DNA of 64,000 nt from a virus, in the IMG/VR virus record IMGVR_UViG_3300046007_008124, positions 28,078 through 92,077 of that record; one strand, 5' to 3'. Numbering within the stretch: position 1 is the stretch's first letter; every line of letters begins with the position of its first letter. The notes beneath the pieces were generated by a model. The model was not told the DNA's origin. It did no database searches and saw nothing but the letters and a program-made list of their open reading frames with translations. Positions 2,929 to 29,165 of this stretch are shown piece after piece. The position numbers were made by a program, and so were the translations under genes.

Positions 2929-5900
2929 ATGGCAGATAAAAGAATAACCGACTTACCTTTAATATTATCTGGTGATATATCAACACAAGATGTATTACCA
3001 ATAGTAGATGTCAATCTAGACATTACAAATAAAATTGAGGTAGATCAATTAAAATCATATATATTAACAGGTGTTAATGATTATTATGTTACTGGTGGTA
3101 CCTATTCTAATGGAACAATAACATTAGGGAGACAAAATGGTTCTTTATCAATTAGCGGTTTATACACTGGATCAACAGATGTTTTTGTAACTGGTGGTAC
3201 CTATGATAACACAACTGGAACATTAACTTTAAAAGATAATAACGGAACGTCATTTGGTGTAACTGGATTTACAACTGGTGGTACTGGGACTTCTTTATAT
3301 GAAGTTGGTTCTGGAACTGACTCAACACAAAGGGTTGGTGTTAATAATGTTGCAATCGGTAATTGTTCTGCTGTTTTAGCTGGATCCGGAAACACTGTAA
3401 TATCAGAATTTTCTTTTATTGGTGGAGGTTATAATAATACTGCTGGTTTTAGTGGTGGTGTTAATTTTGTTTATAATGAAACATTTACAGGTAATATACC
3501 TTCATCAGGATTTTACGGTTCAATTCCACCATCATCAACACTTTCCGGTCTTGGTTCTGGTTCAACTTTTTCATTTTATTTTTCAACTCAAACAACTTTA
3601 AGTAATGTTTATGTTGACAATCAAGGTAGTGGATATGTTAGTGGTGATACATTAACATTTAACGGTTCAAATTTTGGTGGTGTAACACCTGCCGATAATG
3701 TTACAGTTCAAATCAACACATTAGGTGGTTCAAACATCGTTATTGGTGGTGGTCAAGGAAATACTGCAAATAGAGACTCATCAACAATTAGTGGTGGTTA
3801 TATAAATAAAAGTAACGCAAACTGCTCAACAATCGGTGGTGGTTGTCGTAACATTATTTCAAATGATTCTTGTTACTCAACAATTAGTGGTGGTAGAAGA
3901 AATACCGGATACGGTTGTTACGGAGTAATTAGTGGTGGTCGTTGTAATGAAACTGGTGCTTATGGTACAATAACTGGAACATTTAATCAAGTGTATACCG
4001 GTGGTACTTTAAATGGAACTTTTTCTGGTGGTTATAACCCAACATCAACGACATCTGGTTATGGATTTGATGCTTCTTTTGGTTTTGTTTTTAATTTTGG
4101 TACTTTATCTAGTGTTAATATTCTTGGTGGTGGTAATCGATATATTGGAAATGATACTTTATTTTTTAATGGTAATATATTTCCTGGTGGAACAACTGGT
4201 ATTGATGATGTAACATTTCAAGTTAGTACATCAATAAATAACTATGCAACAGTAGCTGGTGGATGTTGTAATACTGCATCTGGTGAATACTCAACAATTA
4301 GTGGTGGGTATGAAAATACAGTATCCGGTGATTATTCAACTATTGGTGGGGGTTCTTGTAACACAATTAATACTAATTCGTGCTATTCAACTATTGGTGG
4401 TGGTGATGATAATACTATCCTTCAAGGTGATGTTGCAACAATCAGTGGTGGTGAAAATAATACGATAAGTGGTGCTTATTCATTTATTGGTGGTGGTTAT
4501 AATAATATAATAACAAGTTCTGATGCAACAATTGGTGGTGGTTGTAATAACACTGCAAGTGGTTACAAATCATTTATTGGTGGTGGAGAAAATAACGTTT
4601 CTGGACGAAATAATTTTGTTAGTGGAATAAATAGTTCTGTATATACTGGTGGTACTTTAAATAATACTTACGGTGGTATCTCACCAACATCAACATCAAG
4701 TGGTACTGGATCTGGGGTATTATTTAGTTTTGATTTTGTTCTTGGTGTATTACAAACCATCCAAATACAAAACGGAGGTTCTGGTTATTCTAATGGTGAA
4801 ACACTATATTTTAACGGTGGATTATTTGGTGGTGGTTCATCTCCTTTAGATGATGTTTGGTTAAACATCCAAACAGAAAATAGCACACATACAACCGTAA
4901 GTGGCGGCTATTGTAACACATCAAGTGGGGATTACTCAACCGTAAGTGGTGGATATAGAAACACATCAAGTTGTTATAGTTCAACAGTAAGTGGAGGTAT
5001 TAATAACAAATCAAGTGGTAATTCTTCAACCGTAGGAGGTGGTCTTGAAAATACATCAAGTTGTTGTTATTCAACAGTAAGTGGGGGACGTAGAAATACA
5101 TCAAGTGGTTATCATTCAACCGTAAGTGGTGGATACCGTAATACATCAAGTGGTCAATATTCAACCGTAAGTGGCGGACAATTTAACACATCAAGTGGTA
5201 ATTATTCATTTGTTGGTGGTGGACAATGTAACGCGTCAAACTCTATTAACTCAACCGTAAGTGGTGGATTTTGTAATACAACAAGTGGAACTTACTCAAC
5301 AATAGGTGGAGGTAATAATAATAAGTCTAGTGGTGGTTATTCAACACTAAGTGGTGGTCAAAATAATGTTGCCGGTGGTACACATTCATTTATTGGTAGT
5401 GGTTTTGGTAACGTTTCAGGTGTTAATGGATTTGTTACTGGTGTTACAGGTTTTGTATATACTGGAGGAACATTTAATAGTACATTCACCGGTGTTAGTC
5501 CAACTTCAACAAGTAGTGGATTAGGATCCAATGCGTTTTTTAACTTTAGTTTCCTTGGTGGTGTATTACAAAGTGTTACAGTACAATCAGCAGGATCTGA
5601 TTATGTAAACGGAGATATACTATATTTTAATGCCGCTTCATTTTTTAGTACATCACCTCTTAATGATGTTTGGATAACAATATCAAGTGCTAGTAATTCA
5701 TTTACAACAGTAGTTGGTGGTAGTCAAAACACATCAAGTGGATATCTATCAATTGTTGGTGCTGGTTATCAAAATACATCAAGTGGTTGTTATTCATTTA
5801 TTGGTGGTGGATGGTGTAACACAACGGTAGGTGATTGCTCAATGATACTTGGTGGTTATGCAAATAAATCTATCGGTACAAGAAGTGCTGTTGTGGGTGG

Positions 5901-6087
5901 TCAGAATATTGTAGCAACAGAAGATGATATGACATATATGCCAAGTGCGAACATCCAATCAACCGGATATATTTATTTTGGAGACGTTAACACAAATGGT
6001 TCTTGGAGAATGAGTATATCTGGCGCAACATTTATAATTGAAAAAAGAGTCGGAGGTGTTTGGGTTGTGTCCGGAACATTCGTATAA
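2929..6087 (+). CDS. Tail fibre/adhesin paralog 1 (15-aa STVSGGxxNTSS beta-roll repeats plus four diverged plug-in domains)
   Basis: N-terminal MADKRITDLP...DVLPIVD motif typical of phage fibre proteins; LYEVGSGTDSTQR motif; dozens of SxISGGxxN repeats. Confidence 0.7.
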   Translation: MADKRITDLPLILSGDISTQDVLPIVDVNLDITNKIEVDQLKSYILTGVNDYYVTGGTYSNGTITLGRQNGSLSISGLYTGSTDVFVTGGTYDNTTGTLTLKDNNGTSFGVTGFTTGGTGTSLYEVGSGTDSTQRVGVNNVAIGNCSAVLAGSGNTVISEFSFIGGGYNNTAGFSGGVNFVYNETFTGNIPSSGFYGSIPPSSTLSGLGSGSTFSFYFSTQTTLSNVYVDNQGSGYVSGDTLTFNGSNFGGVTPADNVTVQINTLGGSNIVIGGGQGNTANRDSSTISGGYINKSNANCSTIGGGCRNIISNDSCYSTISGGRRNTGYGCYGVISGGRCNETGAYGTITGTFNQVYTGGTLNGTFSGGYNPTSTTSGYGFDASFGFVFNFGTLSSVNILGGGNRYIGNDTLFFNGNIFPGGTTGIDDVTFQVSTSINNYATVAGGCCNTASGEYSTISGGYENTVSGDYSTIGGGSCNTINTNSCYSTIGGGDDNTILQGDVATISGGENNTISGAYSFIGGGYNNIITSSDATIGGGCNNTASGYKSFIGGGENNVSGRNNFVSGINSSVYTGGTLNNTYGGISPTSTSSGTGSGVLFSFDFVLGVLQTIQIQNGGSGYSNGETLYFNGGLFGGGSSPLDDVWLNIQTENSTHTTVSGGYCNTSSGDYSTVSGGYRNTSSCYSSTVSGGINNKSSGNSSTVGGGLENTSSCCYSTVSGGRRNTSSGYHSTVSGGYRNTSSGQYSTVSGGQFNTSSGNYSFVGGGQCNASNSINSTVSGGFCNTTSGTYSTIGGGNNNKSSGGYSTLSGGQNNVAGGTHSFIGSGFGNVSGVNGFVTGVTGFVYTGGTFNSTFTGVSPTSTSSGLGSNAFFNFSFLGGVLQSVTVQSAGSDYVNGDILYFNAASFFSTSPLNDVWITISSASNSFTTVVGGSQNTSSGYLSIVGAGYQNTSSGCYSFIGGGWCNTTVGDCSMILGGYANKSIGTRSAVVGGQNIVATEDDMTYMPSANIQSTGYIYFGDVNTNGSWRMSISGATFIIEKRVGGVWVVSGTFV
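4888..5360 (+). repeat. 45-nt coding tandem repeat (consensus TCAACCGTAAGTGGTGG-N7-AACACATCAAGTGG-N7), representative array
   Basis: Visible directly. The same unit recurs at about 7040-9520, 23930-25960 and 26480-28700. Confidence 0.9.
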
Positions 6088-6112: not shown

Positions 6113-9100
6113 ATGGGATTTAATACAGACATATTAAGTGCAACAACAATAAGTGGTGGAACATTCTATGGTGATGGTTCCGGATTAGTTGATAACACAA
6201 TTACCGAAATTATAAATTCACCAACACAGAATCCACTTAATGTTAACACAAGTAATGATTATTTACCAATTACTGGTAATGACCAATATCAAGATGAAGC
6301 AAGTAACTATATTTCTTGGACAAATGGGTCAAATAATGGGACAGGATTTAATCCTTGGACCATAACTACACAACCAAATACTGGTGTGTTTTTAGGTAAT
6401 CCAGCGTCGGATGGTATGGGAACCGCCGGTATTGGAACAAACGCATTTGCTCTTTTTGCAACTGACGGATCAAATTATGTATCAACATCAAGAACATTTA
6501 CATCTGGAATGAATGTTGGTGATGTATTTAGTTTTTATTGGGCGATAAATTTTGACGCAAATGGTGGTAATAAAGGTTTTGATTTAAAAGCTGGTGGTAC
6601 AACAATTTTTAATGCTAATAATAATAATTCTGCAACAATAACATCAAACTTATCTTCACCTAATAACATTATTGATAGTGGTTATGGTACAACACCAATG
6701 TTAGTTACTCTAACTAGAACAAGTGATATTCTTTATAATATAACAATAACATCTAGAAGTGGTGGACCAACTTATTCTGCATCAATAAATTCACCATTGG
6801 TTGTCAATGAAATTAATTTTTATTGTGGTGCTCAAGGTGATGGTTTAGGACAAAGGAATTTATTTTTTAATCAACTTTTAATTACAAAAACAACAGAGTT
6901 ATTAAAAATAACAGTTGATGATTTGGGAAGTTTGTTTGGTGGTGGGTCTTTATATGAAGTTGGTTCCGGTACAGACTCAACACAAAGATGTGGTGTTAAT
7001 AATGTTGCTAGTGGCAATTGTTCTATTGTTGCAGGTGGTGATTATAACACATCATTATCACCTTCTTCAGTTATAAGTGGTGGTAAATGTAATACAGCAG
7101 ACTGTAATTTTTCAACCGTAAGTGGTGGTTATTCTAATAAAACTTATGGTGGTTGTTCATTTGTAGGTGGCGGTGTTCGTAACACAGCAAGTAATAACTT
7201 TTCAATAGTTGGTGGTGGTTGTATCAACACATCAAGTGGTAACTACTCAACAATAAGTGGTGGTCGTCAAAATACATCAAGTGATTATTATTCAACCGTA
7301 AGTGGCGGTCGTCAAAATACATCAAGTAGTTGTTATTCAACTATAAGTGGTGGTCGTCAAAATACATCAAGTAGTTGTTATTCAACTATAAGTGGTGGTT
7401 ATCGTAATGTTTCAGGAATAAACGGAACCGTAAGTGGTGTTTACAATCAAACATATTTAGGTAGCACATTAAATGGAACATTTAATTCAATATCTCCATC
7501 ATCAACATCTTCTGGTTATGGTAATGGTGCAATATTTAATTTTGTTTTTAACACCGGAAGTTTATCTACTGTTACTCTTGTAACAATTGGTTCTGGATAT
7601 GTAAACGGAAATTTATTAACCTTTGACGGAACTTTATTTGGTGGATCAAGTGGAACCGACGATGTTACATTAAATATTAATACACAAAACATAGGAAATA
7701 GTTCAACCGTAAGTGGAGGTCGTGGTAACACATCAATTGGTGGATATTCAACCGTAAGTGGGGGTGTTGGTAACACATCAAGTGCGTGTTATTCAACAAT
7801 AAGTGGTGGAGTAAATAACACATCAAGTTGTAATTATTCATTTGTTGGTGGAGGTCGCCAAAACACATCAAGTGGTGACCTTTCAACGATTGCCGGTGGT
7901 CTTCAAAACGCATCAAGTTGTAAATATTCAACCGTAAGTGGTGGTGCTTTTAATACATCAAGTAGTGATAATTCATTTATTGGTGGTGGACTTAGAAATA
8001 CAACAAGTGGACAATATTCAACTATAAGTGGTGGTTATTGTAATGTTTCAGGAATAAATGGAATCGTAAGTAGTTTTTCTAATCAAACATATTTAGGAAG
8101 TACATTAAATGGAACATTTAATTCAATATCTCCATCATCAACATCTTCTGGTTATGGTAATGGTGCAACATTTAATTTTGTGTTTAACACAGGGAGTTTA
8201 TCTACTGTTACTCTTGTAACAATTGGTTCTGGATATGTAAATGGAGATTTATTAACCTTTGACGGAACTTTATTTGGCGGATCAAGTGGAACCGATGATG
8301 TCACTTTAACTATTAACACATCAACAATAGGAAATTGCTCAACCGTAAGTGGAGGTCGTGGTAACACATCAAGTGGAGATATATCAACCGTTGGTGGTGG
8401 TCGTTTTAACACATCAAGTGGAGATATATCAACCGTAAGTGGTGGTTGGCAAAACACGTCAAGTGGATATAACTCAACAATAAGTGGGGGATATTGTAAT
8501 ACATCAAGTGGATATAACTCAACCGTAAGTGGGGGATGTTGTAATACATCAAATGGTTGTGGATCATTTATTGGTGGTGGACGAAATAACACAATAAATT
8601 GTTTTTTTAATACAATTGGTGGTGGTCAAAATAACACATCAATTGGACAACAGTCTATAATTGGTGGTGGTTCTAGTAATGTGGCATTTGGTAGTGCTTC
8701 ATTTATCGGTGGTGGTAGTCAAAACACATCAAATGGCGGTGGGTCAACTATTAGTGGTGGAGTCGCTAACACATCAAGTGGTGATTCTTCAACCGTAAGT
8801 GGTGGTCGTTTTAACACATCAATTGGCTGTTGCTCAACCGTAAGTGGTGGTTATTGTAATGTTTCAGGAATAAATGGAACCGTAAGTGGATTGTATAATC
8901 AAACATATTTAGGAAGCACATTAAATGGAACATTTAATTCAATATCTCCATCATCAACATCTTCTGGTTATGGTAATGGTGCAACATTTAATTTTTTGTT
9001 TAACACAGGAAGTTTATCTACTGTTACTCTTGTAACAATTGGTTCTGGATATGTAAACGGTGATCAATTATTATTTGATGGTACTTTATTTGGTGGATCA

Positions 9101-9706
9101 AGTGGAACCGATGATGTTACTTTAAATATTAATACACAAACAATAGGAAATTGCTCAACAATAGGTGGAGGTCACCAAAACACATCAAACGGAAATTCTT
9201 CAACAGTAAGTGGTGGTTATAGAAACACATCAAGTGGTAATTACTCAACCGTAAGTGGTGGAGTAAATAACACATCAAGTGGAGATATATCAACCGTAAG
9301 TGGTGGAGTAAATAACACATCAAGTTGTAATTATTCATTTGTTGGTGGAGGTTATAATAACACATCAAGTGGTCAATATTCAACAATAAGTGGTGGAGGT
9401 TGTAACACATCAAGTAGTGATAATTCATTTATTGGTGGTGGACTTAGAAATACAACAAGTGGACAATATTCAACTATAAGTGGTGGATATCGTAACACGT
9501 CAATAAATGTTTATTCGGCAATACTTGGAGGACAAAGTAATACATCCCAACACGATTGTTCATTTATTGTTGGTAGCGGAATTTTTAGTACAGCGGCAAA
9601 CACAACACACGTAAATTGTTTACACTTTAGTAATATACCAACAAGTTCAGCGGGTCTTGCTCCAGGAACAGTATGGAATAATGGTGGTGTATTAAACATA
9701 GCATAA
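6113..9706 (+). CDS. Tail fibre/adhesin paralog 2 with N-terminal lectin-like insert and three near-identical 97-aa domains
   Basis: Same repeat family and LYEVGSGTDSTQR motif. C-terminal NIPTSSAGLAPGTVWNNGGVLNI resembles common phage fibre tips. Confidence 0.7.
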   Translation: MGFNTDILSATTISGGTFYGDGSGLVDNTITEIINSPTQNPLNVNTSNDYLPITGNDQYQDEASNYISWTNGSNNGTGFNPWTITTQPNTGVFLGNPASDGMGTAGIGTNAFALFATDGSNYVSTSRTFTSGMNVGDVFSFYWAINFDANGGNKGFDLKAGGTTIFNANNNNSATITSNLSSPNNIIDSGYGTTPMLVTLTRTSDILYNITITSRSGGPTYSASINSPLVVNEINFYCGAQGDGLGQRNLFFNQLLITKTTELLKITVDDLGSLFGGGSLYEVGSGTDSTQRCGVNNVASGNCSIVAGGDYNTSLSPSSVISGGKCNTADCNFSTVSGGYSNKTYGGCSFVGGGVRNTASNNFSIVGGGCINTSSGNYSTISGGRQNTSSDYYSTVSGGRQNTSSSCYSTISGGRQNTSSSCYSTISGGYRNVSGINGTVSGVYNQTYLGSTLNGTFNSISPSSTSSGYGNGAIFNFVFNTGSLSTVTLVTIGSGYVNGNLLTFDGTLFGGSSGTDDVTLNINTQNIGNSSTVSGGRGNTSIGGYSTVSGGVGNTSSACYSTISGGVNNTSSCNYSFVGGGRQNTSSGDLSTIAGGLQNASSCKYSTVSGGAFNTSSSDNSFIGGGLRNTTSGQYSTISGGYCNVSGINGIVSSFSNQTYLGSTLNGTFNSISPSSTSSGYGNGATFNFVFNTGSLSTVTLVTIGSGYVNGDLLTFDGTLFGGSSGTDDVTLTINTSTIGNCSTVSGGRGNTSSGDISTVGGGRFNTSSGDISTVSGGWQNTSSGYNSTISGGYCNTSSGYNSTVSGGCCNTSNGCGSFIGGGRNNTINCFFNTIGGGQNNTSIGQQSIIGGGSSNVAFGSASFIGGGSQNTSNGGGSTISGGVANTSSGDSSTVSGGRFNTSIGCCSTVSGGYCNVSGINGTVSGLYNQTYLGSTLNGTFNSISPSSTSSGYGNGATFNFLFNTGSLSTVTLVTIGSGYVNGDQLLFDGTLFGGSSGTDDVTLNINTQTIGNCSTIGGGHQNTSNGNSSTVSGGYRNTSSGNYSTVSGGVNNTSSGDISTVSGGVNNTSSCNYSFVGGGYNNTSSGQYSTISGGGCNTSSSDNSFIGGGLRNTTSGQYSTISGGYRNTSINVYSAILGGQSNTSQHDCSFIVGSGIFSTAANTTHVNCLHFSNIPTSSAGLAPGTVWNNGGVLNIA
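7406..7696 (+). repeat. 291-bp dispersed repeat, copy 1 (others at 8042-8332, 8858-9148, 28017-28307)
   Basis: Near-identical blocks starting AATGTTTCAGGAATAAA, encoding NVSGINGTVSG...SISPSSTSSGYGNGA...GGSSGTDDVTLNINTQ. Confidence 0.92.
8042..8332 (+). repeat. 291-bp dispersed repeat, copy 2
   Basis: Aligns by eye, without gaps, to 7406-7696. Confidence 0.9.
8858..9148 (+). repeat. 291-bp dispersed repeat, copy 3
   Basis: Aligns by eye, without gaps, to 7406-7696. Confidence 0.9.
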
Positions 9707-10263: not shown

Positions 10264-10446
10264 ATGGAAATTAAATTATTATTTAAGTATGAAGAACCAA
10301 AACAAATTGGTGAACACAAGGTAATTGCAATTAGACAAGTACCAAGAGGAATTAGATTTAGAACTGAAAATGGACCAATCCTTAAAGAAGTTGCATTTAA
10401 AGAAACTTGGACTGAAGAAGAATTGCACGCATTATTATTAAGTTAA
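10264..10446 (+). CDS. Hypothetical protein (60 aa)
   Basis: A-rich leader, genome-typical codon use, followed by a terminator. Confidence 0.6.
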   Translation: MEIKLLFKYEEPKQIGEHKVIAIRQVPRGIRFRTENGPILKEVAFKETWTEEELHALLLS

Positions 10447-10451: not shown

Positions 10452-10481
10452 AAAACCCCACCTTTAAAAGTGGGGTTTTTT
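10452..10481 (+). terminator. Intrinsic terminator
   Basis: AAAACCCCAC-loop-GTGGGGTTTT hairpin running into a T-tract. Confidence 0.85.
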
Positions 10482-10516
10482 ATACACTTTTTTGTTACAA
10501 ATAATATAATTGTATT

Positions 10517-11257
10517 ATGTTTGTAACAGTATGTAATAAAGAATACCTCATAGGATTTGAGGTAATGTTAAAATCTTTAATAGATAATAATCCAAGAGTT
10601 GTTACTGATAATTTACCATTTGTAATTATTACAAACGATTTAAACCCTGAAGATTTAGTCACCTCAAGAACAATTTATAATAATATACATATAAAAAGAT
10701 TTGACGAATCAAAATATTCACAAATAGAGGAATTAAAAAAACAACAAATGGCATTTGGTGATTATACCAAATATGAAATTTTTTCTTTGACCGAATTTAA
10801 AAAAATTATATTTTTAGACTCCGATACAATAATATTAGGAAACATTGATTACCTTATTGATTTTAAAGAACCATTTGGTTGTGTGAGAGAATTATTTATT
10901 GATCAATATAACACCGGTGTTATGGTAATCGAAAATAAATATTTAAATCCAAAAATTACAGAAGATTTAATCAATCTAACAAACATTTATGGTATTACAG
11001 AACATTTAGATCAGGACATAATAAATAATTATTTTATTGATGTTATCACGCCAATTCCATTGGAATACAACTATCTTAAAATATATTCAAAACAAATTTT
11101 TCAAAACACCGGACTTCCGGAGTATATTAAAATAATTCATTATGTTGTTAAAAAACCTTGGCAACAAAAACCATTGGTAATATTAGAAGAAGGAACACTA
11201 TGGACCGAAAGATATTGGTTTGAGTATTATTCAAAAGTACTAAAGTTAAAAATATAA
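10517..11257 (+). CDS. Glycosyltransferase family 8 (glycogenin/LgtC-like)
   Basis: IIFLDSDT (DxD), YNTGVMVI, DQDIIN and IIHYVVKKPW are classic GT8 motifs. Confidence 0.85.
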   Translation: MFVTVCNKEYLIGFEVMLKSLIDNNPRVVTDNLPFVIITNDLNPEDLVTSRTIYNNIHIKRFDESKYSQIEELKKQQMAFGDYTKYEIFSLTEFKKIIFLDSDTIILGNIDYLIDFKEPFGCVRELFIDQYNTGVMVIENKYLNPKITEDLINLTNIYGITEHLDQDIINNYFIDVITPIPLEYNYLKIYSKQIFQNTGLPEYIKIIHYVVKKPWQQKPLVILEEGTLWTERYWFEYYSKVLKLKI

Positions 11258-13055: not shown

Positions 13056-13056
13056 A

Positions 13057-13875: not shown

Positions 13876-13878
13876 TTT

Positions 13879-16612: not shown

Positions 16613-16653
16613 CAACAACTTTATAATAAAGACAAATGTTTTATAATTAATTA

Positions 16654-19600: not shown

Positions 19601-20235
19601 TTAATCAACCAATTGGAACCTGGGATACCTCTTCCGTTACAACTATGGGTAGTATGTTTAATAATGCAACATTATTTAACCAACCAATTGGTACTTGGAT
19701 TACATCTTTAGTTACAAATATGACTCTTATGTTTGCTGGCGCAACATCATTTAACCAACCAATTGGAACCTGGGATGTATCTTCGGTTATAACTATAAAT
19801 GCTATGTTTGATACTGCAATATCATTTAACCAACCAATTGGAACCTGGGATGTGTCAAATATTACAGATATGAGCGGTATGTTTCAAAGTGCTACATCAT
19901 TTAACCAACCAATTGGAACTTGGAATACATCGTTAGTTACAAATATGATTAGTATGTTTAATAATGCAACATTATTTAACCAACCAATTGGTACTTGGGA
20001 CGTTTCATTAGTGACAAGTATGAATAATATGTTAGATAATTGTGGGTTAAGTCAAGCAAATTATGATAACTTACTTATAGGTTGGTCAATATTACCATCA
20101 CTACAACTTGGTGTTACACTTGGTGCTTTAAATATACAATATACACAACCACCAAGTGCTGTGGCTTTAGCTAGAAATACAGTTTTAATTGGAACTTATG
20201 GATGGACAATTGTTGGTGATATTCCGGTACCATAA
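16654..20235 (+). CDS. PKD + DUF285 (BspA-like) repeat surface protein, three modules
   Basis: Three (V/Y)xWGDG...HTYxxxGxY PKD units, each followed by about 25-aa [20 protein letters not shown] repeats; PT linkers near the N-terminus. Confidence 0.85.
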
Positions 20236-20284
20236 CCATTTATTTATTTATTTCATTTTTTATTTTTATCTTAAAAAATATTAG

Positions 20285-21529
20285 ATGAATACCATATTTG
20301 TTCAAATCGCATCATTTAGAGATCCCCAACTTAATCCGACAATTAAAGATATGTTGGAAAATGCCAAATACCCAGAGAATTTAAGAATAGGAATTTGTAA
20401 TCAATATAATCCGGAAGACGAATTTAATTTAGATAAATTCAGAGATGATGATAGATTTAGAATTGATGATGTTTTAGATAAAGATTCACAAGGTGTTTGT
20501 TGGGCTCGCCACAAAGTACAACAAATGTATAGTGGAGAAACTTACACATTACAGATTGATTCTCATATGCGTTTTGAAAAAGATTGGGACAAGACTCTAA
20601 TTGAAATGTTAAAGGGGTTACAAGATAAAGGATATAAGAAACCATTACTTACAGGTTATGTATCTTCTTTTGATCCGGAAAATGACCCAAAAGGAAGAGT
20701 AACGGAACCTTGGAGAATGGCTTTTGATAGATTTACACCGGAAGGTTGTGTTTTCTTTTTACCTGAAACAATACCAGGATGGAAAGAATTAAAAGAACCA
20801 ATTACATCAAGATTTTATTCAGCACATTTTTGTTTTACATTAGGTGAATTTTCAGTTGAGGTTCAACACGATCCAAATTATTATTTTCACGGAGAAGAAA
20901 TATCAATTGCTGTTAGGGCATACACTTACGGATATGATTTGTTTCACCCACATAAAGTTGTTATCTGGCACGAATATACAAGAAAGGGAAGAACAAAACA
21001 TTGGGATGTTGATTCGGAGTGGTATAAGAAAAATGACGCATCACATAAAAGAAATAGAGAACTATTGGGAATTGATGGTTTAGTATTTTCTGGTGATAGT
21101 TCATTATATTTTGGTACCGAAAGAACAATTAGAGATTATGAAAAATATTCCGGAATTCTTTTTGAGAAAAGAGCTGTACAACAATATACAATAGATAAAA
21201 AATACTCACCAAATCCATACGAATATAAAACAGAAGAAGAATGGAAGGATAGTTTCCTTTCAATATTTAAACATTGTATTGACCTTTCATTTGATATGGT
21301 TAAAGAAACAGATTATGATTTTTGGGTTGTTGCATTTCATAATGGTAAAGATGAAACATTATATAGAAGAGATGCCGACCAAAATGAGATTGCAATGATG
21401 ATGAAAGATCCAGATAGATATTGTAAAATATGGAGAGAGTTTAATACAACGGAAAGACCAAAGTATTGGGTGGTTTGGCCACATAGTACATCAAAAGGTT
21501 GGTGTGATAGAATAACTGGGAATTTATGA
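20285..21529 (+). CDS. GT60-family polypeptide alpha-GlcNAc transferase-like protein
   Basis: IFVQIASFRDPQL, GVCWAR, LQIDSHMRF (DxH) and FHGEEISIAVRAYTYGYDLFHP. Confidence 0.82.
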   Translation: MNTIFVQIASFRDPQLNPTIKDMLENAKYPENLRIGICNQYNPEDEFNLDKFRDDDRFRIDDVLDKDSQGVCWARHKVQQMYSGETYTLQIDSHMRFEKDWDKTLIEMLKGLQDKGYKKPLLTGYVSSFDPENDPKGRVTEPWRMAFDRFTPEGCVFFLPETIPGWKELKEPITSRFYSAHFCFTLGEFSVEVQHDPNYYFHGEEISIAVRAYTYGYDLFHPHKVVIWHEYTRKGRTKHWDVDSEWYKKNDASHKRNRELLGIDGLVFSGDSSLYFGTERTIRDYEKYSGILFEKRAVQQYTIDKKYSPNPYEYKTEEEWKDSFLSIFKHCIDLSFDMVKETDYDFWVVAFHNGKDETLYRRDADQNEIAMMMKDPDRYCKIWREFNTTERPKYWVVWPHSTSKGWCDRITGNL

Positions 21530-23190
21530 TTACATTAGTAACTGGTCTTTGGGATATTGGTAGAGGTGAATTATCTGATGGGTGGTCAAGATCATTTGAT
21601 CACTATTTAGATAAATTTTCACAACTATTAAAGGTTGATAACAATATGATAATTTTTGGTGATCAGAAATTAAAAGAGTTTGTTTTTAAATATAGAACAG
21701 AGGAAAATACTCAATTTATATTAAAACCAGTTGATTGGTTTAAAAACAACGAGTTTTATGAATTAATCCAAAACATTAGAAAAAATCCATCTTGGTATAA
21801 TCAAGTAGGTTGGTTAAAAGAGTCAACACAAGCAAGACTTGAGATGTATAATCCACTTGTTATGTCAAAGATGTTTTTATTACACGACGCAAAACTTTTA
21901 GATAAGTTTGATTCAAAATTATTATACTGGATTGATGCCGGACTAACAAACACGGTACATCCTGGATATTTTACACACGACAAAGTTTTAGATAAGATAC
22001 CAAAATTATTTAAAAAATTCACATTTGTTTGTTTTCCATATAAAGCAGAAACAGAAGTTCACGGATTTAAATATGATAAGATGTGTGAGTTATCCGGAAA
22101 AAATACAGAAATAGTTGCTCGTGGTGGATTTTTTGGTGGAGATAAAGATTCAATATCACAGATGAATGTTCTTTATTATAACTTGATGATGGAAACATTA
22201 AAGTCTGGTTTAATGGGAACAGAAGAATCTTTATTTACAATTCTTCTATATCAAAATCCATCACTTATTGATTATTGTGAAATAGAATCAAATGGATTAC
22301 TATATAAATTTTTTGAGGATGTTAAAAATGATAAGGTTGTATTAAAAAATAAAGGAAAGAAAATTGTGACAAATTATAATGGTGACGTTGGTTTATATGT
22401 AATTACATTTAACTCACCAAAACAATTTGAAGTTTTAATAAAATCAATGTTGGATTATGATTCAAATTTTATTCATAAGACCAAAAAGTTTTTACTGGAT
22501 AATTCAACCGATCTTTCAACAACTCCGAGGTATAGAGAACTATGTGAAAATTACAATTTTCAACACATTAAAAAGAATAACATTGGTATAACCAGAGGTA
22601 GAGTTTTTGTTGCCGAACATTTTAACGAACAAGAAAATTTATCACATTATTTTTTCTTTGAGGATGATTTTGGTTTCTATTCCGGAAAAGATATTACCTG
22701 TAAAAACGGTTTTATAAGAAAAATTAATAATATATATGAAAAAACTTTAGAAATAATTAAAAAAGAAAATTTTGACTATTTAAAATTGAATTTTACCGAA
22801 TTTTATGGTTCTCACAATAAACAATGGAGTTGGTATAATGTAAGTCAACAATATAGAGAAAGTCACTGGCCAAACAACCCAAAGTTACCAAAACAAGGAC
22901 TTGACCCAAATTCACCAAATCTTGAATTTAAACATATACAATCACATAAAGGATTGGCCTATGTTTCTGGTGAAATTTATTTATCCAACTGGCCAATATT
23001 AATGACAAAGGAAGGAAATTATAATTGTTATATTAAAACAAAATTCCAACATCCATACGAACAGACTTTAATGTCAAATTGTTATCAAGAAATAATTAAA
23101 GGAAATATTAATCCAGGATTACTTCTTGCAACACCAACAGAACACAATCGTTTTGATTTTTATGAATCTTCATTAAGAAAAGAGTGTTAA
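21526..23190 (+). CDS. HtrL/YibB-like glycosyltransferase domain fused to a GT-A-like domain
   Basis: N-half: TLVTGLWDIGR, WIDAG, GGFFGG, GTEESL. C-half: LLDNST...GITRGR...FFEDD. Confidence 0.65.
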   Translation: MITLVTGLWDIGRGELSDGWSRSFDHYLDKFSQLLKVDNNMIIFGDQKLKEFVFKYRTEENTQFILKPVDWFKNNEFYELIQNIRKNPSWYNQVGWLKESTQARLEMYNPLVMSKMFLLHDAKLLDKFDSKLLYWIDAGLTNTVHPGYFTHDKVLDKIPKLFKKFTFVCFPYKAETEVHGFKYDKMCELSGKNTEIVARGGFFGGDKDSISQMNVLYYNLMMETLKSGLMGTEESLFTILLYQNPSLIDYCEIESNGLLYKFFEDVKNDKVVLKNKGKKIVTNYNGDVGLYVITFNSPKQFEVLIKSMLDYDSNFIHKTKKFLLDNSTDLSTTPRYRELCENYNFQHIKKNNIGITRGRVFVAEHFNEQENLSHYFFFEDDFGFYSGKDITCKNGFIRKINNIYEKTLEIIKKENFDYLKLNFTEFYGSHNKQWSWYNVSQQYRESHWPNNPKLPKQGLDPNSPNLEFKHIQSHKGLAYVSGEIYLSNWPILMTKEGNYNCYIKTKFQHPYEQTLMSNCYQEIIKGNINPGLLLATPTEHNRFDFYESSLRKEC

Positions 23191-23216
23191 CGATATATTT
23201 ATTGTAAAAACAATAA

Positions 23217-23681
23217 ATGGAGTTCTTTATAAAGAAAAATGCGACACTTCCGGTTTTAAAAATTACAGTCGTAAAAGACGGACGAAGTGATTATAATAAT
23301 TTTATGGATTTTATTGAGGAATCTTCCATTTTTTTCTCAATGATTGATACCGAAACCGGTATTCCGAAAATACTAACAAGACCAGCAGGATTTGTAAAAA
23401 AAGAATTTATGGACCTAAACACTCCGGTTGAGTACTATGTCTATTATCAATTTACATCAAAAGATACAAGAAAAGTTGGAAGATTTGAGGGTCAATTTTT
23501 ATTTAGAAATGATGATGGAGTTTTAATCCTTCCAATAAGAGATAAACTATTTATAAACATACAAGAAAGTTTCATCGCAGATGATCTTCCTTATGAGAGT
23601 TGTTATGTTTCAGAATTTCCTTGTTGTGTAAAAACACCAGTAATTCCAGTTACAACAACCACAACAACATTACTATTTTAA
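23217..23681 (+). CDS. Hypothetical phage structural protein (possibly BppU-like fibre anchor)
   Basis: FFIKKNATLPVL N-terminus, YQFTSKDT..GRFEGQF, Thr-rich tail; directly precedes fibre genes. Confidence 0.45.
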   Translation: MEFFIKKNATLPVLKITVVKDGRSDYNNFMDFIEESSIFFSMIDTETGIPKILTRPAGFVKKEFMDLNTPVEYYVYYQFTSKDTRKVGRFEGQFLFRNDDGVLILPIRDKLFINIQESFIADDLPYESCYVSEFPCCVKTPVIPVTTTTTTLLF

Positions 23682-23696
23682 AAAAAATAATTAACT

Positions 23697-26123
23697 ATGG
23701 CAAATTTACCAATATCAGTATTACCTAATGTAAATGCAAGTGGTGTTACACAAAATGACTTACTTGTTATTGTAAACTATGATGTATTAACTGGGAACAC
23801 AAAAAACATAACAGCATTAGATTTTAAAACTTATATAAATTCCGGATCAACACAATTATATGAAGTTGGTTCTGGTACAGACTCAACACAAAGAATTGGT
23901 GTTAACGCAAATGCTATTGGTGATTACTCTGTTGTTAGTGGTGGACAAAACAATTTTGCAAATAGTGGTTACACTTTTGTTGGTGGTGGTTTAAATAATA
24001 CAGCATCTGGCGAATATTCAACAATTGGTGGTGGAGCTTTTAACACATCAGATGGTGTTTATTCAACAGTAGGTGGTGGAACAAATAACATATCAATTGG
24101 GCCTACATCATTTATTGGTGGCGGACAACAAAATACATCAAGTGGGGATAATTCAACAGTAAGCGGTGGGTACAAAAACACATCAAGTTGTAATGGTTCA
24201 ACCGTAAGTGGGGGTATTCAAAATACATCAAGTGGACAATACTCAACAGTAAGTGGTGGTCGTGGTAATACACCAAATGGATTTGCATCAACCATTAGTG
24301 GAGGTTTTAGTAATACATCAAGTGCGTACTATTCTTTTGTTGGTGGTGGGTGTGCAAATACTATTGACAGCATCATCGCTTCAAGTAGTTATTCTGTCTT
24401 TGGTTCAACAATCGGTGGAGGTTCTTATAACACAATATCATCTTATAGTAGTTGCTACGATTCATATGGTAATACAATTGCTGGAGGAACTTGTAACACA
24501 ACAGTTTCATCATATTATAATGGACAAACAATTGGTGGGGGTGTATGTAATGTAACCTCCAATGATTTTTCAACAGTAAGTGGGGGTTATCTTAACACAT
24601 CAAGTGGTTCTGTTTCAACCGTAAGTGGTGGACTTAGAAACACATCAAACGGAAATTCTTCAACTATAAGTGGTGGTCAGTGTAACACATCAAGTGATTG
24701 TAACTCAACCGTAAGTGGCGGTTTTGCCAACACGGCTTCAAATAGTTATTCAACAGTAGGTGGTGGTGGTCAAAATAGGTCAATCGGATGTTCATCAACA
24801 GTAAGTGGTGGACTACAAAATACTGCAAGTTGTAGTTCTTCAACCGTAAGTGGTGGTCGTTTAAACACATCAAGTGGTCAATATTCATTTATTGGTGGTG
24901 GATCTGGTAATACAGCATTTAATCTTTATTCAACAGTTGTTGGTGGTAGAGAAAATACATCAAGTGATGATTACTCATTTATTGGTGGTGGTTGTGGTAA
25001 TAAATCAATTGGTTGTTATTCAACCGTAAGTGGTGGTTTGCTTAACACATCAAGTAGTTCTTGTTCATTTGTTGGTGGTGGTCAGACAAACACAACAATT
25101 GGTGGTGTATCGTTTATTGGTAGTGGAAGTCAAAATACTTCATCTGGATGTAATTCAGTTGTCACTGGTGGGTTCTGTAATAGAACAATAGGTGTATGTA
25201 ACTTCATTGGTGGTGGACAATCAAATATAACATCAGGTAGTACATCAACAGTAGTCGGCGGCCTTGAAAATAATTCAATAAACAATATGACATTTGTTGG
25301 TGGAGGTTTTCAAAATACATCAAGTGGAGTTTATTCAACAATTGGTGGTGGTCGTCAAAATACATCAAGTGGTTGTTATTCAACAATTGGTGGTGGTTAT
25401 AAAAACACAACAAATAATAATTCAGTAACTGTAAGTGGTGGAGTACGTAACACATCAAGTGGTTATAGCTCAACAATTAGTGGGGGGCAACGTAATACTA
25501 GTTCAGCCTATGGTTCATTTGTTGGTGGAGGTAGACTTAACGTTAGTGCAAACTCATCTTCAGTTGTTACTGGAGGTGATTCAAATACCGCTTTAGATTT
25601 TTACTCATCAATTAATGGTGGAAATCAAAACACAACAAATGGTTTTGCCTCAACTATTGGTGGTGGTTGGAAAAATACGTCTAACGGTATTTGTTCTGTT
25701 ATTGGTGGTGGTTCATTTAATATTTCTAGTACAGATTTTTCAGCAATACTTGGTGGATCTGGAAACACAGCAAATGGTGCTTGTAGTTTTATTGGTGGAG
25801 GTCTTAATAATGTAACAAACGATAAAGCAATTGTTATTGGTGGTGGTAGAGCTAATCAAGTTACTGCACCATGTTCTGTAATTTTAGGTGGGCAAAATAA
25901 TTCAATTTGTACAATTTATTCTGGTATATTGGGTGGGTGCGGAAACTCTGTTGGTCACAACTGTTCATTTATTGTTGGTCATGGTATATCAACATCATGC
26001 CCAAATACAACATATGTCAATTGTTTAAATATTGTAAGTTTACCAACAGAAGCAAGTTTACCTCTCCCAACAGGAACATTATATAGATGTACATCGGATA
26101 ATTCAATTTATTCGGTACCATAA
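23697..26123 (+). CDS. Tail fibre/adhesin paralog 3
   Basis: MANLPISVLP N-terminus, LYEVGSGTDSTQR, long uninterrupted run of 15-aa repeats. Confidence 0.7.
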   Translation: MANLPISVLPNVNASGVTQNDLLVIVNYDVLTGNTKNITALDFKTYINSGSTQLYEVGSGTDSTQRIGVNANAIGDYSVVSGGQNNFANSGYTFVGGGLNNTASGEYSTIGGGAFNTSDGVYSTVGGGTNNISIGPTSFIGGGQQNTSSGDNSTVSGGYKNTSSCNGSTVSGGIQNTSSGQYSTVSGGRGNTPNGFASTISGGFSNTSSAYYSFVGGGCANTIDSIIASSSYSVFGSTIGGGSYNTISSYSSCYDSYGNTIAGGTCNTTVSSYYNGQTIGGGVCNVTSNDFSTVSGGYLNTSSGSVSTVSGGLRNTSNGNSSTISGGQCNTSSDCNSTVSGGFANTASNSYSTVGGGGQNRSIGCSSTVSGGLQNTASCSSSTVSGGRLNTSSGQYSFIGGGSGNTAFNLYSTVVGGRENTSSDDYSFIGGGCGNKSIGCYSTVSGGLLNTSSSSCSFVGGGQTNTTIGGVSFIGSGSQNTSSGCNSVVTGGFCNRTIGVCNFIGGGQSNITSGSTSTVVGGLENNSINNMTFVGGGFQNTSSGVYSTIGGGRQNTSSGCYSTIGGGYKNTTNNNSVTVSGGVRNTSSGYSSTISGGQRNTSSAYGSFVGGGRLNVSANSSSVVTGGDSNTALDFYSSINGGNQNTTNGFASTIGGGWKNTSNGICSVIGGGSFNISSTDFSAILGGSGNTANGACSFIGGGLNNVTNDKAIVIGGGRANQVTAPCSVILGGQNNSICTIYSGILGGCGNSVGHNCSFIVGHGISTSCPNTTYVNCLNIVSLPTEASLPLPTGTLYRCTSDNSIYSVP

Positions 26124-26159: not shown

Positions 26160-29100
26160 ATGGCAAATAAAAGAATATCACAATTACCTTATGTAGGAAA
26201 CACTGGTTATACATCAAATGATATAATGCCAATTGTAAATTATGATGTATCAAGTGGTACAACAAAAAATACACCTCTTGTTGATTTAAAAGCTTATATT
26301 TTAAGTGGTTCAACAGATTATTATGTAACAGGTGGAACTTATTCTGGTGGAACATTAGTTTTGGATAGACAAAATGGTTCAGTAACAATAAATGGTTTTA
26401 CAACTGGAACAACATTATATGAAGTTGGTTCTGGAGTTGACTCAACACAAAGAATAGGTGTTAATAATGATGCAAGTGGGGATTACTCAACCGTAAGTGG
26501 TGGTCGTCAAAACACATCAAGTGGTTATTATTCTTTTATTGGTGGTGGACAACAAAATCTAATAACAGGATATACAGCAACAATAAGTGGTGGGTATTTA
26601 AACACATCAAGTGGTTGTTATTCATTTATTGGTGGAGGAGTTGCTAATAATGTAACAAATATTAAATCGACCGTAGGTGGTGGTGGTTGTAATACCTCAA
26701 GTGGTTATTATTCAACCATAAGTGGTGGAAGATTAAATAAATCAAGTAATTGTGGATCAACAGTAAGCGGTGGAGGACGTAACACATCAAGTAATTATAA
26801 TTCAACCGTAAGTGGTGGTTATTGTAACACATCAAGTGGGGATAATTCAACCGTAAGTGGTGGACGTAGTAACACAGCAAGTAATTATAATTCAACTGTA
26901 AGTGGTGGTTATAGTAACACATCAAGTGGTTACGCCTCATTTGTTGGTGGTGGAGTAAATAACACATCAAGTGGTGATTGCTCAACCGTAGGTGGAGGTC
27001 GTAATAACACGTCAAATGGACCTGGAAACTTTATTGGTGGTGGACTTGCTAACTTTACCGACAATAAATTTTCAACTGTAAGTAGTGGATATCGTAACAC
27101 ATCAAGTGGTGGATATGCAACAGTAGGTGGGGGTTTTTGTAACACATCAAATGGTGATTTTTCTGTAATTGGTGGTGGTCGTGAAAACACATCACAAAAT
27201 GATTTTGCGTCAGTTTTTGCTGGATCTGGTAATACAGCATCAGGGTACTATAGTATTATTGGTAGTGGTATCAAAAATACAAATAATAGTGATCTTGGTT
27301 TTCTTGGTGGTGGTTTTTGTAATACATCAAGTGGTTACGATGGAGTACTTGGTGGTGGTGGATGTAATACATTAAATAATTTACTTGGTGGTGTAATTGC
27401 CGGTGGTAGATTAAATACTGTTGTTGGTATCGCCCCAAATACAATTGGGGGTGGTTTTGGAAATAATATATTTGCTTTTGGTCCATCAACAATTAGTGGT
27501 GGATACTTAAACACAACAAGAAGTGACTACTCTACAGTAGGTGGTGGTTCATTAAATACAATAGATTCAATAACAACACAATCTGGTTATTATGTCTTTG
27601 GTTCATCAATAGGTGGGGGTTCTTGTAATACAATATCATCTTATAGTGCATCTTATGATTCTTTTGGTAATACAATTGCCGGAGGAACTTGTAATGTAAC
27701 TGTATCATCATATAGCAATGGTCAAACAATTGGTGGAGGATATCGTAATACAACATTGTGTGATTACGCAACCGTAAGTGGTGGTTATCGTAACACATCA
27801 AGCGGTAATATCTCAACCGTAAGTGGAGGTATTAATAACGCATCAAGCGGTAATATCTCAACCGTAAGTGGCGGTCGTTGTAACACATCAAGTGGTAATT
27901 CTTCAACCGTAAGTGGTGGTCGTAATAACACATCAAGTGGGGATTACTCAACCGTAAGTGGTGGTTATCGTAACACATCAAGCGGAAGTGGTTCATTTAT
28001 TGGTGGGGGAGAAAATAATGTTTCAGGAATAAATGGAACCGTAAGTGGTGTTTATAATCAAACATACACTGGTGGAACTTTAAATGGAACATTTAATTCA
28101 ATATCTCCATCATCAACATCTTCTGGTTATGGTAATGGTGCAACATTTAATTTTGTTTTTAACACAGGAATTTTAACTACTGTTAATCTTGTAACAATTG
28201 GTTCTGGATATGTAAACGGAGATTTGTTAACATTTGATGGAACTTTATTTGGTGGATCAAGTGGAACCGATGATGTTACTTTAAATATTAATACACAAAC
28301 AATTGGACCATTCTCAACTGTAAGTGGTGGTGTTAATAACACATCAAGTGGTAAATATTCAACCGTAAGTGGTGGAGTAAATAACACATCAAGTGGTGAT
28401 AATTCATTTATTGGCGGTGGTGTATGTAATACATCAATTGGTGCCGCTTCATTTATTGGTGGTGGCGTTCGAAACACATCAAGTGGTCAATATTCATTTA
28501 TTGGTGGTGGACTTAGAAACACATCAAACGGAAATTCTTCAACAATAAGTGGTGGATATCGTAACACATCAAGTGGTATATATTCATTTATTGGTACCGG
28601 AGAATGTAACACTATTGATTCTGCTTATTCAGTTGTAAACGGCGGAGTAAATAATACTTCACTTAATATATATAATAGTATATTAGGTGGTTCCGGAAAT
28701 ACAATAAATCACGACTTCTCAAGTGCCGTTGGTAAAGATGTCACGTCAGTTTCAGCTTGTACATTCCACGTAAATTATTTGGCGTTACAAAATACGCCAG
28801 AAACAGATAGTACTAATAACAATTTCTTGGTTAGAGACACATCAACAGGTATTTTAAAAACAAGAGATATTTCTCAATCAGCAAACTACTCAACAAGTGC
28901 TATAACATCCTCACAAACCTTAACTTGGGATAAAGTATATTGGGGTGTTAGTGGATCATCAAATGTTGATTTAACATTACCAACAACAACGTCAAAAGAT
29001 GGTTACTTTTTAATAATTAAAGACGAATCCGGAACCTCCGGATCTTTTAGAATAAGATTAACACCGGCATCGGGTTTGATTGATGGGAATTCATACGTTG

Positions 29101-29165
29101 ATATGAATATAAACTATATGTCTCTTACCATTATGGTGAGAAACGGAAATTGGTATTTAATTTAA
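26160..29165 (+). CDS. Tail fibre/adhesin paralog 4
   Basis: MANKRISQLP N-terminus, 15-aa repeats, one 97-aa plug-in domain, C-terminal LTLP...IIKDE...GNWYLI domain. Confidence 0.7.
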   Translation: MANKRISQLPYVGNTGYTSNDIMPIVNYDVSSGTTKNTPLVDLKAYILSGSTDYYVTGGTYSGGTLVLDRQNGSVTINGFTTGTTLYEVGSGVDSTQRIGVNNDASGDYSTVSGGRQNTSSGYYSFIGGGQQNLITGYTATISGGYLNTSSGCYSFIGGGVANNVTNIKSTVGGGGCNTSSGYYSTISGGRLNKSSNCGSTVSGGGRNTSSNYNSTVSGGYCNTSSGDNSTVSGGRSNTASNYNSTVSGGYSNTSSGYASFVGGGVNNTSSGDCSTVGGGRNNTSNGPGNFIGGGLANFTDNKFSTVSSGYRNTSSGGYATVGGGFCNTSNGDFSVIGGGRENTSQNDFASVFAGSGNTASGYYSIIGSGIKNTNNSDLGFLGGGFCNTSSGYDGVLGGGGCNTLNNLLGGVIAGGRLNTVVGIAPNTIGGGFGNNIFAFGPSTISGGYLNTTRSDYSTVGGGSLNTIDSITTQSGYYVFGSSIGGGSCNTISSYSASYDSFGNTIAGGTCNVTVSSYSNGQTIGGGYRNTTLCDYATVSGGYRNTSSGNISTVSGGINNASSGNISTVSGGRCNTSSGNSSTVSGGRNNTSSGDYSTVSGGYRNTSSGSGSFIGGGENNVSGINGTVSGVYNQTYTGGTLNGTFNSISPSSTSSGYGNGATFNFVFNTGILTTVNLVTIGSGYVNGDLLTFDGTLFGGSSGTDDVTLNINTQTIGPFSTVSGGVNNTSSGKYSTVSGGVNNTSSGDNSFIGGGVCNTSIGAASFIGGGVRNTSSGQYSFIGGGLRNTSNGNSSTISGGYRNTSSGIYSFIGTGECNTIDSAYSVVNGGVNNTSLNIYNSILGGSGNTINHDFSSAVGKDVTSVSACTFHVNYLALQNTPETDSTNNNFLVRDTSTGILKTRDISQSANYSTSAITSSQTLTWDKVYWGVSGSSNVDLTLPTTTSKDGYFLIIKDESGTSGSFRIRLTPASGLIDGNSYVDMNINYMSLTIMVRNGNWYLI
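28017..28307 (+). repeat. 291-bp dispersed repeat, copy 4
   Basis: Near-identical to the copies about 20 kb upstream in the 6113 gene. Confidence 0.9.

Follow-up and report, generated by a model that had tools for sequence, protein, structure and literature searches.

A candidate phage-encoded system for glycosylation and sulfation of virion appendage proteins in an uncultured myophage

The stretch of viral DNA analysed here, called the window, comprises the final 64 kb of a 92-kb virus record from the IMG/VR database (IMGVR_UViG_3300046007_008124) and carries an island of glycosyltransferase (GT), sulfation and repeat-protein genes that might enable a phage to decorate its own appendage proteins. 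The 92-kb contig is a genome fragment, 78 open reading frames (ORFs) of which entered a census of Pro/Thr (PT) tracts, and the G+C content of the window is about 30%. From the sheath, gp19-type tube and T4 baseplate proteins of a tail, along with gp32 and a family-B polymerase (PolB), all encoded in the window, a T4-like or jumbo-type myophage can be deduced. A close cultured phage was not found, as the identity of PolB to cultured phages does not exceed 28% and the tail sheath gives its best match, at 31% identity, to Microcystis phage Mel-JY01. All genes that had been listed for the island in a first-pass annotation were recovered in place and on the plus strand by profile, structure and PDB searches; the genes mentioned below lie on this strand unless indicated otherwise. 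Moreover, the island extends beyond the borders drawn in that annotation, as a second glycan-gene cluster is located upstream on the same contig, and the whole 92 kb encode about 11 putative glycosyltransferases.

Four fibre-like proteins, designated A (1052 aa, 2929–6087), B (1197 aa, 6113–9706), C (808 aa, 23697–26123) and D (1001 aa, 26160–29165), are candidate acceptors. Each of them consists of 19% Gly and 15–18% Ser and displays 15-residue repeats rich in Gly, Ser, Thr and Asn. Across the four fibres, 134 repeat anchors with the consensus xYST[VI][SG]GGxxNTSSG can be counted, 103 of which are in exact 15-residue register; in fibre B, this spacing is kept by 33 of 37 anchors. The repeats of fibre A match the LbR_Ice_bind beta-roll (E 1.1e-9) and are broken by modules of about 107 aa, fibre C has the same repeats as the other three, and fibre D combines UspA1-head-like repeats with a globular C-terminal domain, its residues 88–323 (236 residues) matching the UspA1 head (PDB 3pr7) at E 1.7e-23. 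The left-handed beta-roll head typical of trimeric autotransporter adhesins (YadA/UspA1) is therefore found in the fibres, but not the signal peptide and the C-terminal membrane-anchor barrel of these adhesins, as neither a Pfam anchor domain nor a hydrophobic N-terminus nor a transmembrane-like segment was detected in the four proteins. Hence, only the repeat fold is shared. A PHROG search with the four fibres did not give a match, nor did the fibre N-terminal domain find one among cultured phages, so that membership of the virion is contextual, with the gene directly 3′ of fibre D (29170–30390) encoding a virion structural protein (phrog_1645, E 6.7e-49) which anchors the island in a structural module. 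Since none of the putative acceptors, fibres as well as the PT proteins described below, carries a signal peptide, they would share the cytoplasm with the enzymes. Two further features of the fibres are cysteines, amounting to 15–27 per protein and clustering at positions 1, 2, 10 and 15 of the repeat, which are variable, and the non-repeat modules of about 107 aa, which are near-identical within and between fibres and suggest recombination among fibre paralogues.

As initiator of fibre O-glycosylation, we propose the short GT-B enzyme encoded at 11257–12165, which resembles TibC and Aah of the bacterial autotransporter heptosyltransferases (BAHT) and contains an iron finger. By sequence, TibC (4rap) is the sole PDB match of this protein (E 1.1e-16), and the profile TIGR04414 is matched at E 8.6e-36, albeit over profile positions 77–373 only and with a score of 123.7 bits, below the equivalog cut-off of 200. 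The predicted structure (pLDDT 88, pTM 0.88) retrieves TibC in Foldseek at E 1.3e-18 with a TM score of 0.78, whereas WaaC, WaaF and GT9 structures only reach about 1e-7. Judged by sequence and model, the enzyme is thus BAHT-like and not like the GT9 enzymes of lipopolysaccharide (LPS) synthesis. With residue roles as established for TibC (PMC4358343), the catalytic base Asp-110 corresponds to D40 within the motif L38-G39-D40, W305 to W223 and, by alignment only, the iron-finger cysteines C339, C342, C358 and C370 to C256, C259, C270 and C282, all of these positions being invariant in 16 diverse homologues. In addition, a lysine is conserved three residues before the position of TibC K230. The short form represents a large metagenomic family of 859 proteins at E ≤ 1e-3, many of which bear the automatic JGI label strand-loop-strand O-heptosyltransferase. 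In close relatives, the BAHT-like gene is always directly followed by that of a second protein, in the window at 12171–13055, which has neither a Pfam nor an NCBIfam match. Its AlphaFold model (pLDDT 69) finds WaaF, GT9 and TibC structures in Foldseek at about 1e-8 (E 1.5e-8); as the hhalign match to the BAHT profile is weak (E 1.2e-4, 55% probability), assignment of the GT9 fold is based on this structure model. Where GT9 enzymes and TibC carry LGD, the protein shows GGLGKH with a lysine at the position of the catalytic Asp, and it may be non-catalytic or employ another mechanism.

A glycogenin-like GT8 (10517–11257; PF01501, E 5e-22) is a probable glycan extender. Among solved structures, it is closest to glycogenin-2 (2.4e-11), Glat1 of the Skp1 glycan (2.9e-11) and GlyE (8.5e-7), hence, going by these sequence matches, to enzymes acting on proteins or protein-linked glycans. 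For sulfation, a sulfotransferase predicted to depend on 3′-phosphoadenosine-5′-phosphosulfate (PAPS) is encoded at 13057–13875 (Sulfotransfer_3; PF13469, E 1.5e-21, 78.1 bits versus a cut-off of 27). Its top NCBIfam match is the carbohydrate sulfotransferase NoeE (E 6e-7) and its closest solved relative, though at a weak E value of 2.8e-5, the protein-tyrosine sulfotransferase TPST1, so that the sulfate acceptor could be either a glycan or tyrosine. The adjoining gene (13879–14334) encodes a CysC-like adenosine-5′-phosphosulfate (APS) kinase, predicted to convert APS to PAPS (PF01583, E 2.5e-20, 73.5 bits versus a cut-off of 21.1), which is also matched by NCBIfam adenylyl-sulfate kinase models at 1.6e-20, under their cut-offs. 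An ATP sulfurylase was not found, and APS would consequently come from the host. Of the sulfated glycan coat envisaged in the first-pass annotation, the sulfation enzymes are accordingly in place, whereas the two sulfotransferase matches do not single out a glycan as the acceptor.

Further downstream, the GT-A enzyme encoded at 20285–21529 had been assigned to family GT60, which is clearly borne out by PF11397 (E 2.6e-67, 228.2 bits versus a gathering threshold of 21) and by a DxH motif (D92-S93-H94) invariant in 55 unique homologues, that of phage XacN1 included. DxH replacing the DxD metal motif is common to GT27 and GT60 (PMC7185993), and characterised GT60 enzymes transfer N-acetylglucosamine (GlcNAc) onto Thr of mucin-like proteins (PMC9472816). 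The phage enzyme is proposed to be a polypeptide Thr O-N-acetylhexosamine (HexNAc) transferase. Homologues with 43–47% identity are encoded in Xanthomonas and Stenotrophomonas jumbo phages. The following gene (21526–23190) encodes an HtrL/YibB-like domain (residues 2–249; HtrL_YibB, E 1e-21) joined to a C-terminal domain with a weak GT2 lead; PDB sequence searches with the GT60 and HtrL proteins did not give a match. In Xanthomonas phage XacN1 (AP018399.1; L097 8995–19350), the GT60 homologue is located beside a carbamoyltransferase gene, a gene annotated as GT9 and a hypothetical gene of about 9.9 kb, which may be a comparable arrangement of enzymes and a giant protein.

Candidate acceptors for GT60 are a 139-aa protein (16193–16612), in which a small N-terminal domain is followed by about 60 residues of (PT)n, and a 1193-aa protein encoded directly upstream of GT60 (16654–20235), in which an N-terminal domain and two PT tracts are combined with six DUF285 (BspA-like) repeats (PF03382, E 3e-160). 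A 154-aa protein (23217–23681) ends in a poly-Thr tail, and its homologues in relatives are longer and possess several PT tracts. PTPTPTPSPTP and poly-Thr tracts are also present in a protein with a C-terminal papain-like (C1) peptidase (279–2897; PF00112, E 1.5e-5; phrog_16701, E 2.4e-55), the open frame of which starts about 70 nt before the window; its gene is conserved just 5′ of the fibres in relatives. In the census of the contig, conducted stringently, PT tracts were found in 5 of the 78 ORFs. Among these is the tail sheath gene (41845–45210), where a Thr/Pro/Ser-rich loop, ITTTSTTMTPSPTPSASPVNPCVSPTPLTSPTPTPTPV, is inserted at 42727–42845 and provides a protein that certainly belongs to the virion with a PT tract.

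The neighbourhood of enzymes and repeat proteins was compared across related genomes, and the locus counts are accordingly not independent. In 14 of 14 IMG/VR loci, a G/S/T/N-rich fibre gene is present within 10 kb of the TibC-like gene. The most distant lineage shows the order (Gly-Thr-Ser)n giant protein, GT1-type protein, GT4-BAHT fusion (28–37% identity) and tail sheath. Five large records were searched for enzyme and fibres, three of them with and two without a TibC-like gene. In the former (G001, G002 and G004, genomes of 215–322 kb), a collagen-like or beta-roll fibre is encoded 0.4–5 kb from the TibC-like gene, while a record lacking this gene (91% complete by CheckV) is also devoid of both fibre types. 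Four smaller fragments (G006–G008 and G010) have a collagen-like or chimeric collagen-plus-beta-roll fibre 4–7 kb from the enzyme gene; a fifth further fragment ends at the TibC-like gene and is outside the tally, which amounts to a G/S/T-rich fibre gene within 10 kb in 21 of 21 loci with enough flank. In G006 (C1:1000-8240), G007 (C1:37160-44920) and G008 (C1:15-4690), single ORFs of 1700–2845 aa each encode both UspA1-like beta-roll repeats and a collagen-like region of (Gly-Thr-Ser)n free of proline.

GT60 was detected in 183 IMG/VR stretches, and 80 loci were analysed. The layout of these 80 loci is PT-rich protein, GT60, zero to nine variable genes, HtrL, PT-tailed protein and PolB. A non-redundant set comprises 60 loci, at 44 of which the ORF immediately upstream of GT60 carries a stringently defined PT tract; among the other ORFs, this was the case for 84 of 662, corresponding to an odds ratio of 19, and this signal spans at least nine upstream proteins without detectable mutual homology. 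The variable cassette between GT60 and HtrL encodes GT10, GT25 and GT34-like transferases, FkbM methyltransferases and a HAD-nucleotidyltransferase fusion.

A related arrangement is found in the cultured cyanophage Mel-JY01 (PP395634.1; L102 3065–8430), where a 1226-aa FkbM-to-BAHT-like fusion annotated as "methyltransferase FkbM", with a TibC-like C-terminus 31% identical to the window protein, is encoded directly after a 508-aa "structural protein" with 18% Ser and FGDTxDDTHxFTGS fibre repeats. With the BAHT-like fusion next to a Ser-rich structural protein in a phage available in culture, the hypothesis developed here becomes testable at the bench. A literature search found neither a paper on Mel-JY01 nor one on phage virion sulfation. 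Just upstream of the Mel-JY01 locus, two extremely Pro/Val/Glu-rich ORFs are located on the opposite strand.

In view of these findings, we lean, if only by a little, towards the island encoding a cytoplasmic system with which the phage decorates its own appendage proteins before or during assembly. Genes, families and conserved neighbourhood are established, and from these we infer the steps of substrate modification. The TibC-like enzyme would start O-glycosylation on Ser/Thr of the beta-roll fibre repeats, maybe together with its GT9-fold partner lacking the catalytic Asp; in related phages, it would act on the collagen-like (Gly-Thr-Ser)n fibres, which are without proline. GT8 might then lengthen the fibre glycan thus begun. 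On the Thr residues of PT tracts, GT60 would start a glycan of the O-HexNAc type, possible targets being the two PT proteins encoded upstream and the 154-aa protein encoded downstream of it, as well as the peptidase-bearing protein and the loop of the tail sheath, and HtrL, in relatives also the variable transferase/methyltransferase cassette, could lengthen it. Finally, the sulfotransferase, using PAPS from the phage APS kinase, would sulfate one of the glycans or directly fibre tyrosines. It can be speculated that the phage benefits from a variable, hydrophilic surface resistant to proteases and recognition, or from altered adsorption. Glycan mimicry directed at a polysaccharide-foraging host, which the first-pass annotation considered next to protease shielding, is a likewise speculative benefit. 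The first-pass annotation had already read the island as encoding both writers and their substrates. Two protein-directed enzyme lineages and a synteny with the repeat proteins that is conserved and re-assorted in relatives support the core of this reading, the modification being what they point to, whereas heptose as the sugar is not supported.

Several points weigh against self-decoration. Modification is seen only by inference from genes, PT tracts are also ordinary linkers, and the 21 of 21 loci overstate independence because the genomes are related. Moreover, the complete relative G005 has GT60 without a PT neighbour as well as a compositionally different collagen-like protein without BAHT; co-occurrence across relatives, which the first-pass annotation had suggested looking at and which the counts given above support, is hence broken in this genome for both pairings. 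In the TibC-like enzyme, the N-terminal beta-barrel (TibC residues 1–97) is absent, the protein beginning at the equivalent of TibC residue 70–94, and deletion of this barrel abolishes the activity of TibC (PMC4358343). A barrel-like segment is kept only in distant phage fusions of about 700 aa. In addition, three of the four ADP-heptose-binding residues are gone, with T226 replaced by Leu, K230 by Ala and the R286 position not being conserved. Consequently, heptose is not safe to predict, and heptose-pathway genes were not seen either. The proposed kinship with TibC/Aah persists in the form of homology, as indicated in sequence and model by fold, catalytic Asp and the four cysteines, but not as strict BAHT membership.

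The loss of the barrel and of three donor-binding residues, along with the lysine in place of the catalytic Asp in the GT9-fold neighbour, would also be in line with the TibC-like protein being a non-catalytic fibre-binding chaperone or adaptor, maybe likewise its neighbour, while the other transferases and the sulfation genes would be unrelated. A precedent is the BAHT homologue BimC, which has been reported to bind its partner BimA without transferase activity (PMC6439308), and adjacency to fibre genes would be expected equally. We nevertheless regard such a role as distinctly improbable. Against it speak the Asp of the LGD motif and the W305 equivalent, both invariant throughout the 16 diverse sequences, and the conserved lysine close to the K230 position. 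Furthermore, distant phage forms possess the barrel and the full STxQAKxWN donor motif and are preceded in their fusions by domains that look active, either GT4 or a set of FkbM methyltransferase, GT32 and GT4, which fits a line of enzymes, and the TibC-like gene shares an operon with GT8 and the sulfotransferase.

The main rival to self-decoration of the virion is remodelling of the host surface, in which the enzymes would act, in the infected cell, on LPS, capsule or glycoproteins of the host surface, for instance to block superinfection or to keep progeny off debris, and the adjacency to fibres would only reflect a hypervariable host-interaction cluster. GT8, GT2, GT25 and HtrL families are common in LPS synthesis and, like GT10, typical of LPS or O-antigen work, the variable cassette between GT60 and HtrL resembles an O-antigen-type diversity locus, and PglD/DegT-type amino-sugar genes are present in the upstream cluster. 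Transcription is to be considered as well, since a strong intrinsic-terminator hairpin with a T-run (10452–10487), followed by a TATAAT-like promoter ahead of GT8, divides the enzyme operon from fibres A and B. The enzymes thus form a separate transcription unit and may be expressed apart from these two fibres. Host remodelling is also the published view of similar clusters in pelagimyophages and cyanomyophages, which are likewise aquatic and T4-like and carry GT8-rich glycan genes dispersed among those for tail fibres; there, the glycosyltransferases have been interpreted as modifying host O-chains (PMC7029224). In the present island, by contrast, protein-directed families tracking repeat-protein genes point to the virion. 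BAHT-like, GT60 and glycogenin-like GT8 enzymes have protein-directed and not LPS-directed relatives, and the BAHT-like gene follows the fibre genes through rearrangements and fusions, in one lineage standing between fibre and sheath genes. Moreover, a lipid-carrier pathway is not apparent on the 92-kb contig, where flippase, polymerase, ligase and initiating phosphoglycosyltransferase (Wzx/Wzy/WaaL-like) gave no Pfam match and multi-spanning membrane proteins of more than 160 aa were not found, and none of the island enzymes has a transmembrane segment. Export genes could be encoded in a part of the genome that this fragmentary contig does not cover. On this evidence, we consider host-surface remodelling unlikely, though it deserves to be taken seriously.

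A quite different function, glycosylation of phage DNA to give sugar-hypermodified bases protected against restriction, appears very improbable and was rejected, as the genes that would support it were not seen in Pfam scans, which revealed no base hydroxymethylase or similar enzyme. In PMC12619734, phage GT-B and GT-A enzymes are cited as commonly glycosylating DNA, a dUTPase/dCTP-deaminase-like gene is present on the contig, and T4 alpha-glucosyltransferase shows up low in the fold list of the TibC-like model (E 3e-3). This match to a DNA-glucosyltransferase, however, is 15 orders of magnitude weaker than that to TibC, and the BAHT, GT60, GT8 and sulfotransferase families are without known DNA-modifying members.

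When comparing the proposed self-decoration system with known ones, TibC-TibA and Aah-AIDA-I of E. coli (BAHT; TIGR04414; PDB 4rap/4rb4) share with it the homologous GT-B domain, the catalytic Asp and the four-Cys iron finger, and also the soluble cytoplasmic enzyme encoded beside a long repeat-rich beta-solenoid surface protein with Ser in G-G turns. The phage enzyme differs in being about 100 residues shorter, below the equivalog cut-off and without the barrel and the T226/K230/R286 equivalents, and its sequence suggests that the donor may be other than ADP-heptose. Its partner is a fibre with trimeric-adhesin-type 15-residue repeats, collagen-like in relatives, in contrast to the monomeric autotransporter in E. 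coli, and the phage island adds extending transferases and a sulfotransferase. With protist GT60 systems, represented by Trypanosoma cruzi TcOGNT1 acting on mucin Thr and by the Skp1 hydroxyproline-GlcNAc pathway ending in the GT8 enzyme Glat1, the phage has PF11397 and the DxH motif in common, Pro/Thr mucin-like tracts adjoin its GT60 gene, and a glycogenin/Glat1-like GT8 is encoded in the same island. Different from the protist systems, the phage enzyme would work in the bacterial cytoplasm and without a prolyl hydroxylase. In Gram-positive cocci, serine-rich-repeat adhesins are glycosylated by GtfA/GtfB and then by GlyE-type GT8s, and are exported by the accessory Sec system. PDB entries 5e9t and 5gvv, which we take to represent this type of adhesin glycosylation, are among the matches of the TibC-like fold and of GT8. 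The resemblance is one of logic only, in that cytoplasmic sequential O-glycosylation would proceed with a GT-B enzyme, a non-catalytic GT-B-fold partner and GT8 extenders; the initiator in the cocci is a GT4 and not a GT9/BAHT enzyme, and the substrate is exported.

To our knowledge, phage-encoded virion glycosylation has so far been shown only for mycobacteriophages. Enzymes of these phages O-glycosylate the phages' own virion proteins (Freeman et al. 2023, cited by PMC12619734 and PMC11256854). There, glycans are placed on the C-termini of capsid and tail-tube subunits by enzymes of other families, and sulfation is not reported. The system proposed here would instead act on fibres and PT linkers, by way of BAHT-like and GT60 enzymes and a PAPS module that are deduced from genes. 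Relative to the mycobacteriophages, the enzyme families and the sulfation module would be new.

A bolder generalisation, which we put forward tentatively and with more doubt than confidence, is that in a widespread clade of uncultured aquatic jumbo/T4-like phages, fibres and linkers receive a self-made coat of sulfated glycoprotein. Two virus-encoded initiating enzymes would be involved, a TibC-like one devoid of the barrel for beta-roll fibres and for collagen-like fibres without proline, and GT60 for Pro/Thr tracts, in addition to a hypervariable extender cassette and virus-made PAPS. If true, this would be the first sulfated virion produced by virus-encoded enzymes and the first protein glycosylation of the BAHT and GT60 types beyond bacterial adhesins and protists, respectively. 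Many presumed "LPS genes" of aquatic phages would then have been misinterpreted. Self-decoration by the present island would in itself extend virion glycosylation to abundant environmental myophages, with different enzyme families and including the supply of the sulfate donor, and glycan diversity would represent a further layer in the evolution of host range and anti-recognition. The many glycosyltransferase "auxiliary metabolic genes" near tail fibres would come to be seen as serving self-decoration and not the editing of host LPS. For glycoengineering, compact soluble enzymes for glycosylating repeat proteins in the bacterial cytoplasm would become useful.

Besides the proposed components, the island contains a gene for a 150-aa HxGH nucleotidyltransferase (14331–14783) with a weak match to archaeal-type nicotinamide mononucleotide (NMN) adenylyltransferase. 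Its assignment as ATP sulfurylase or ADP-heptose synthase was considered and is unsupported, as only the weak NMN-adenylyltransferase matches were obtained; one relative retains the gene without the sulfation genes. In most relatives, it is followed by a gene for a DUF2061 small membrane-type protein (in the window at 15720–16160; PF09834, E 3.3e-14), the two genes abutting in L003, L004, L007, L010 and L011. In the window, they are split by a Zn-finger ORF on the minus strand (14745–15599) with a weak DUF7487 match, which relatives lack at this site and which is probably a mobile endonuclease-like insertion outside the system. A T4 late-promoter-like sequence, TATAAATA, is located 18–90 nt upstream of five genes, namely at 6083 for fibre B, 15682 for the DUF2061 gene, 26142 for fibre D, 41758 for the sheath and 45206 for the ORF at 45233, all on the plus strand. 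Across the window, the sequence is not enriched, with 19 occurrences observed versus 15.9 expected. Between a 173-aa ORF and the terminator ahead of GT8, an ORF of 60 codons is present (10264–10446).

The upstream glycan cluster occupies the minus strand at about 12800–25200 of the contig (L001:12814-19724; L002:410-7102) and comprises four GT2 and two GT1/GT4-like genes as well as genes for a CmcI-type O-methyltransferase, a PglD-like acetyltransferase and a DegT-like aminotransferase, the latter seemingly split or truncated. PhoH and dUTPase/dCTP-deaminase-like genes are interspersed. Outside the island, a 699-aa protein encoded on the minus strand (35625–37724) contains a complete Fe/Mn superoxide dismutase domain (residues 167–356) with unassigned N- and C-terminal flanks, an unusual superoxide dismutase fusion for a phage.

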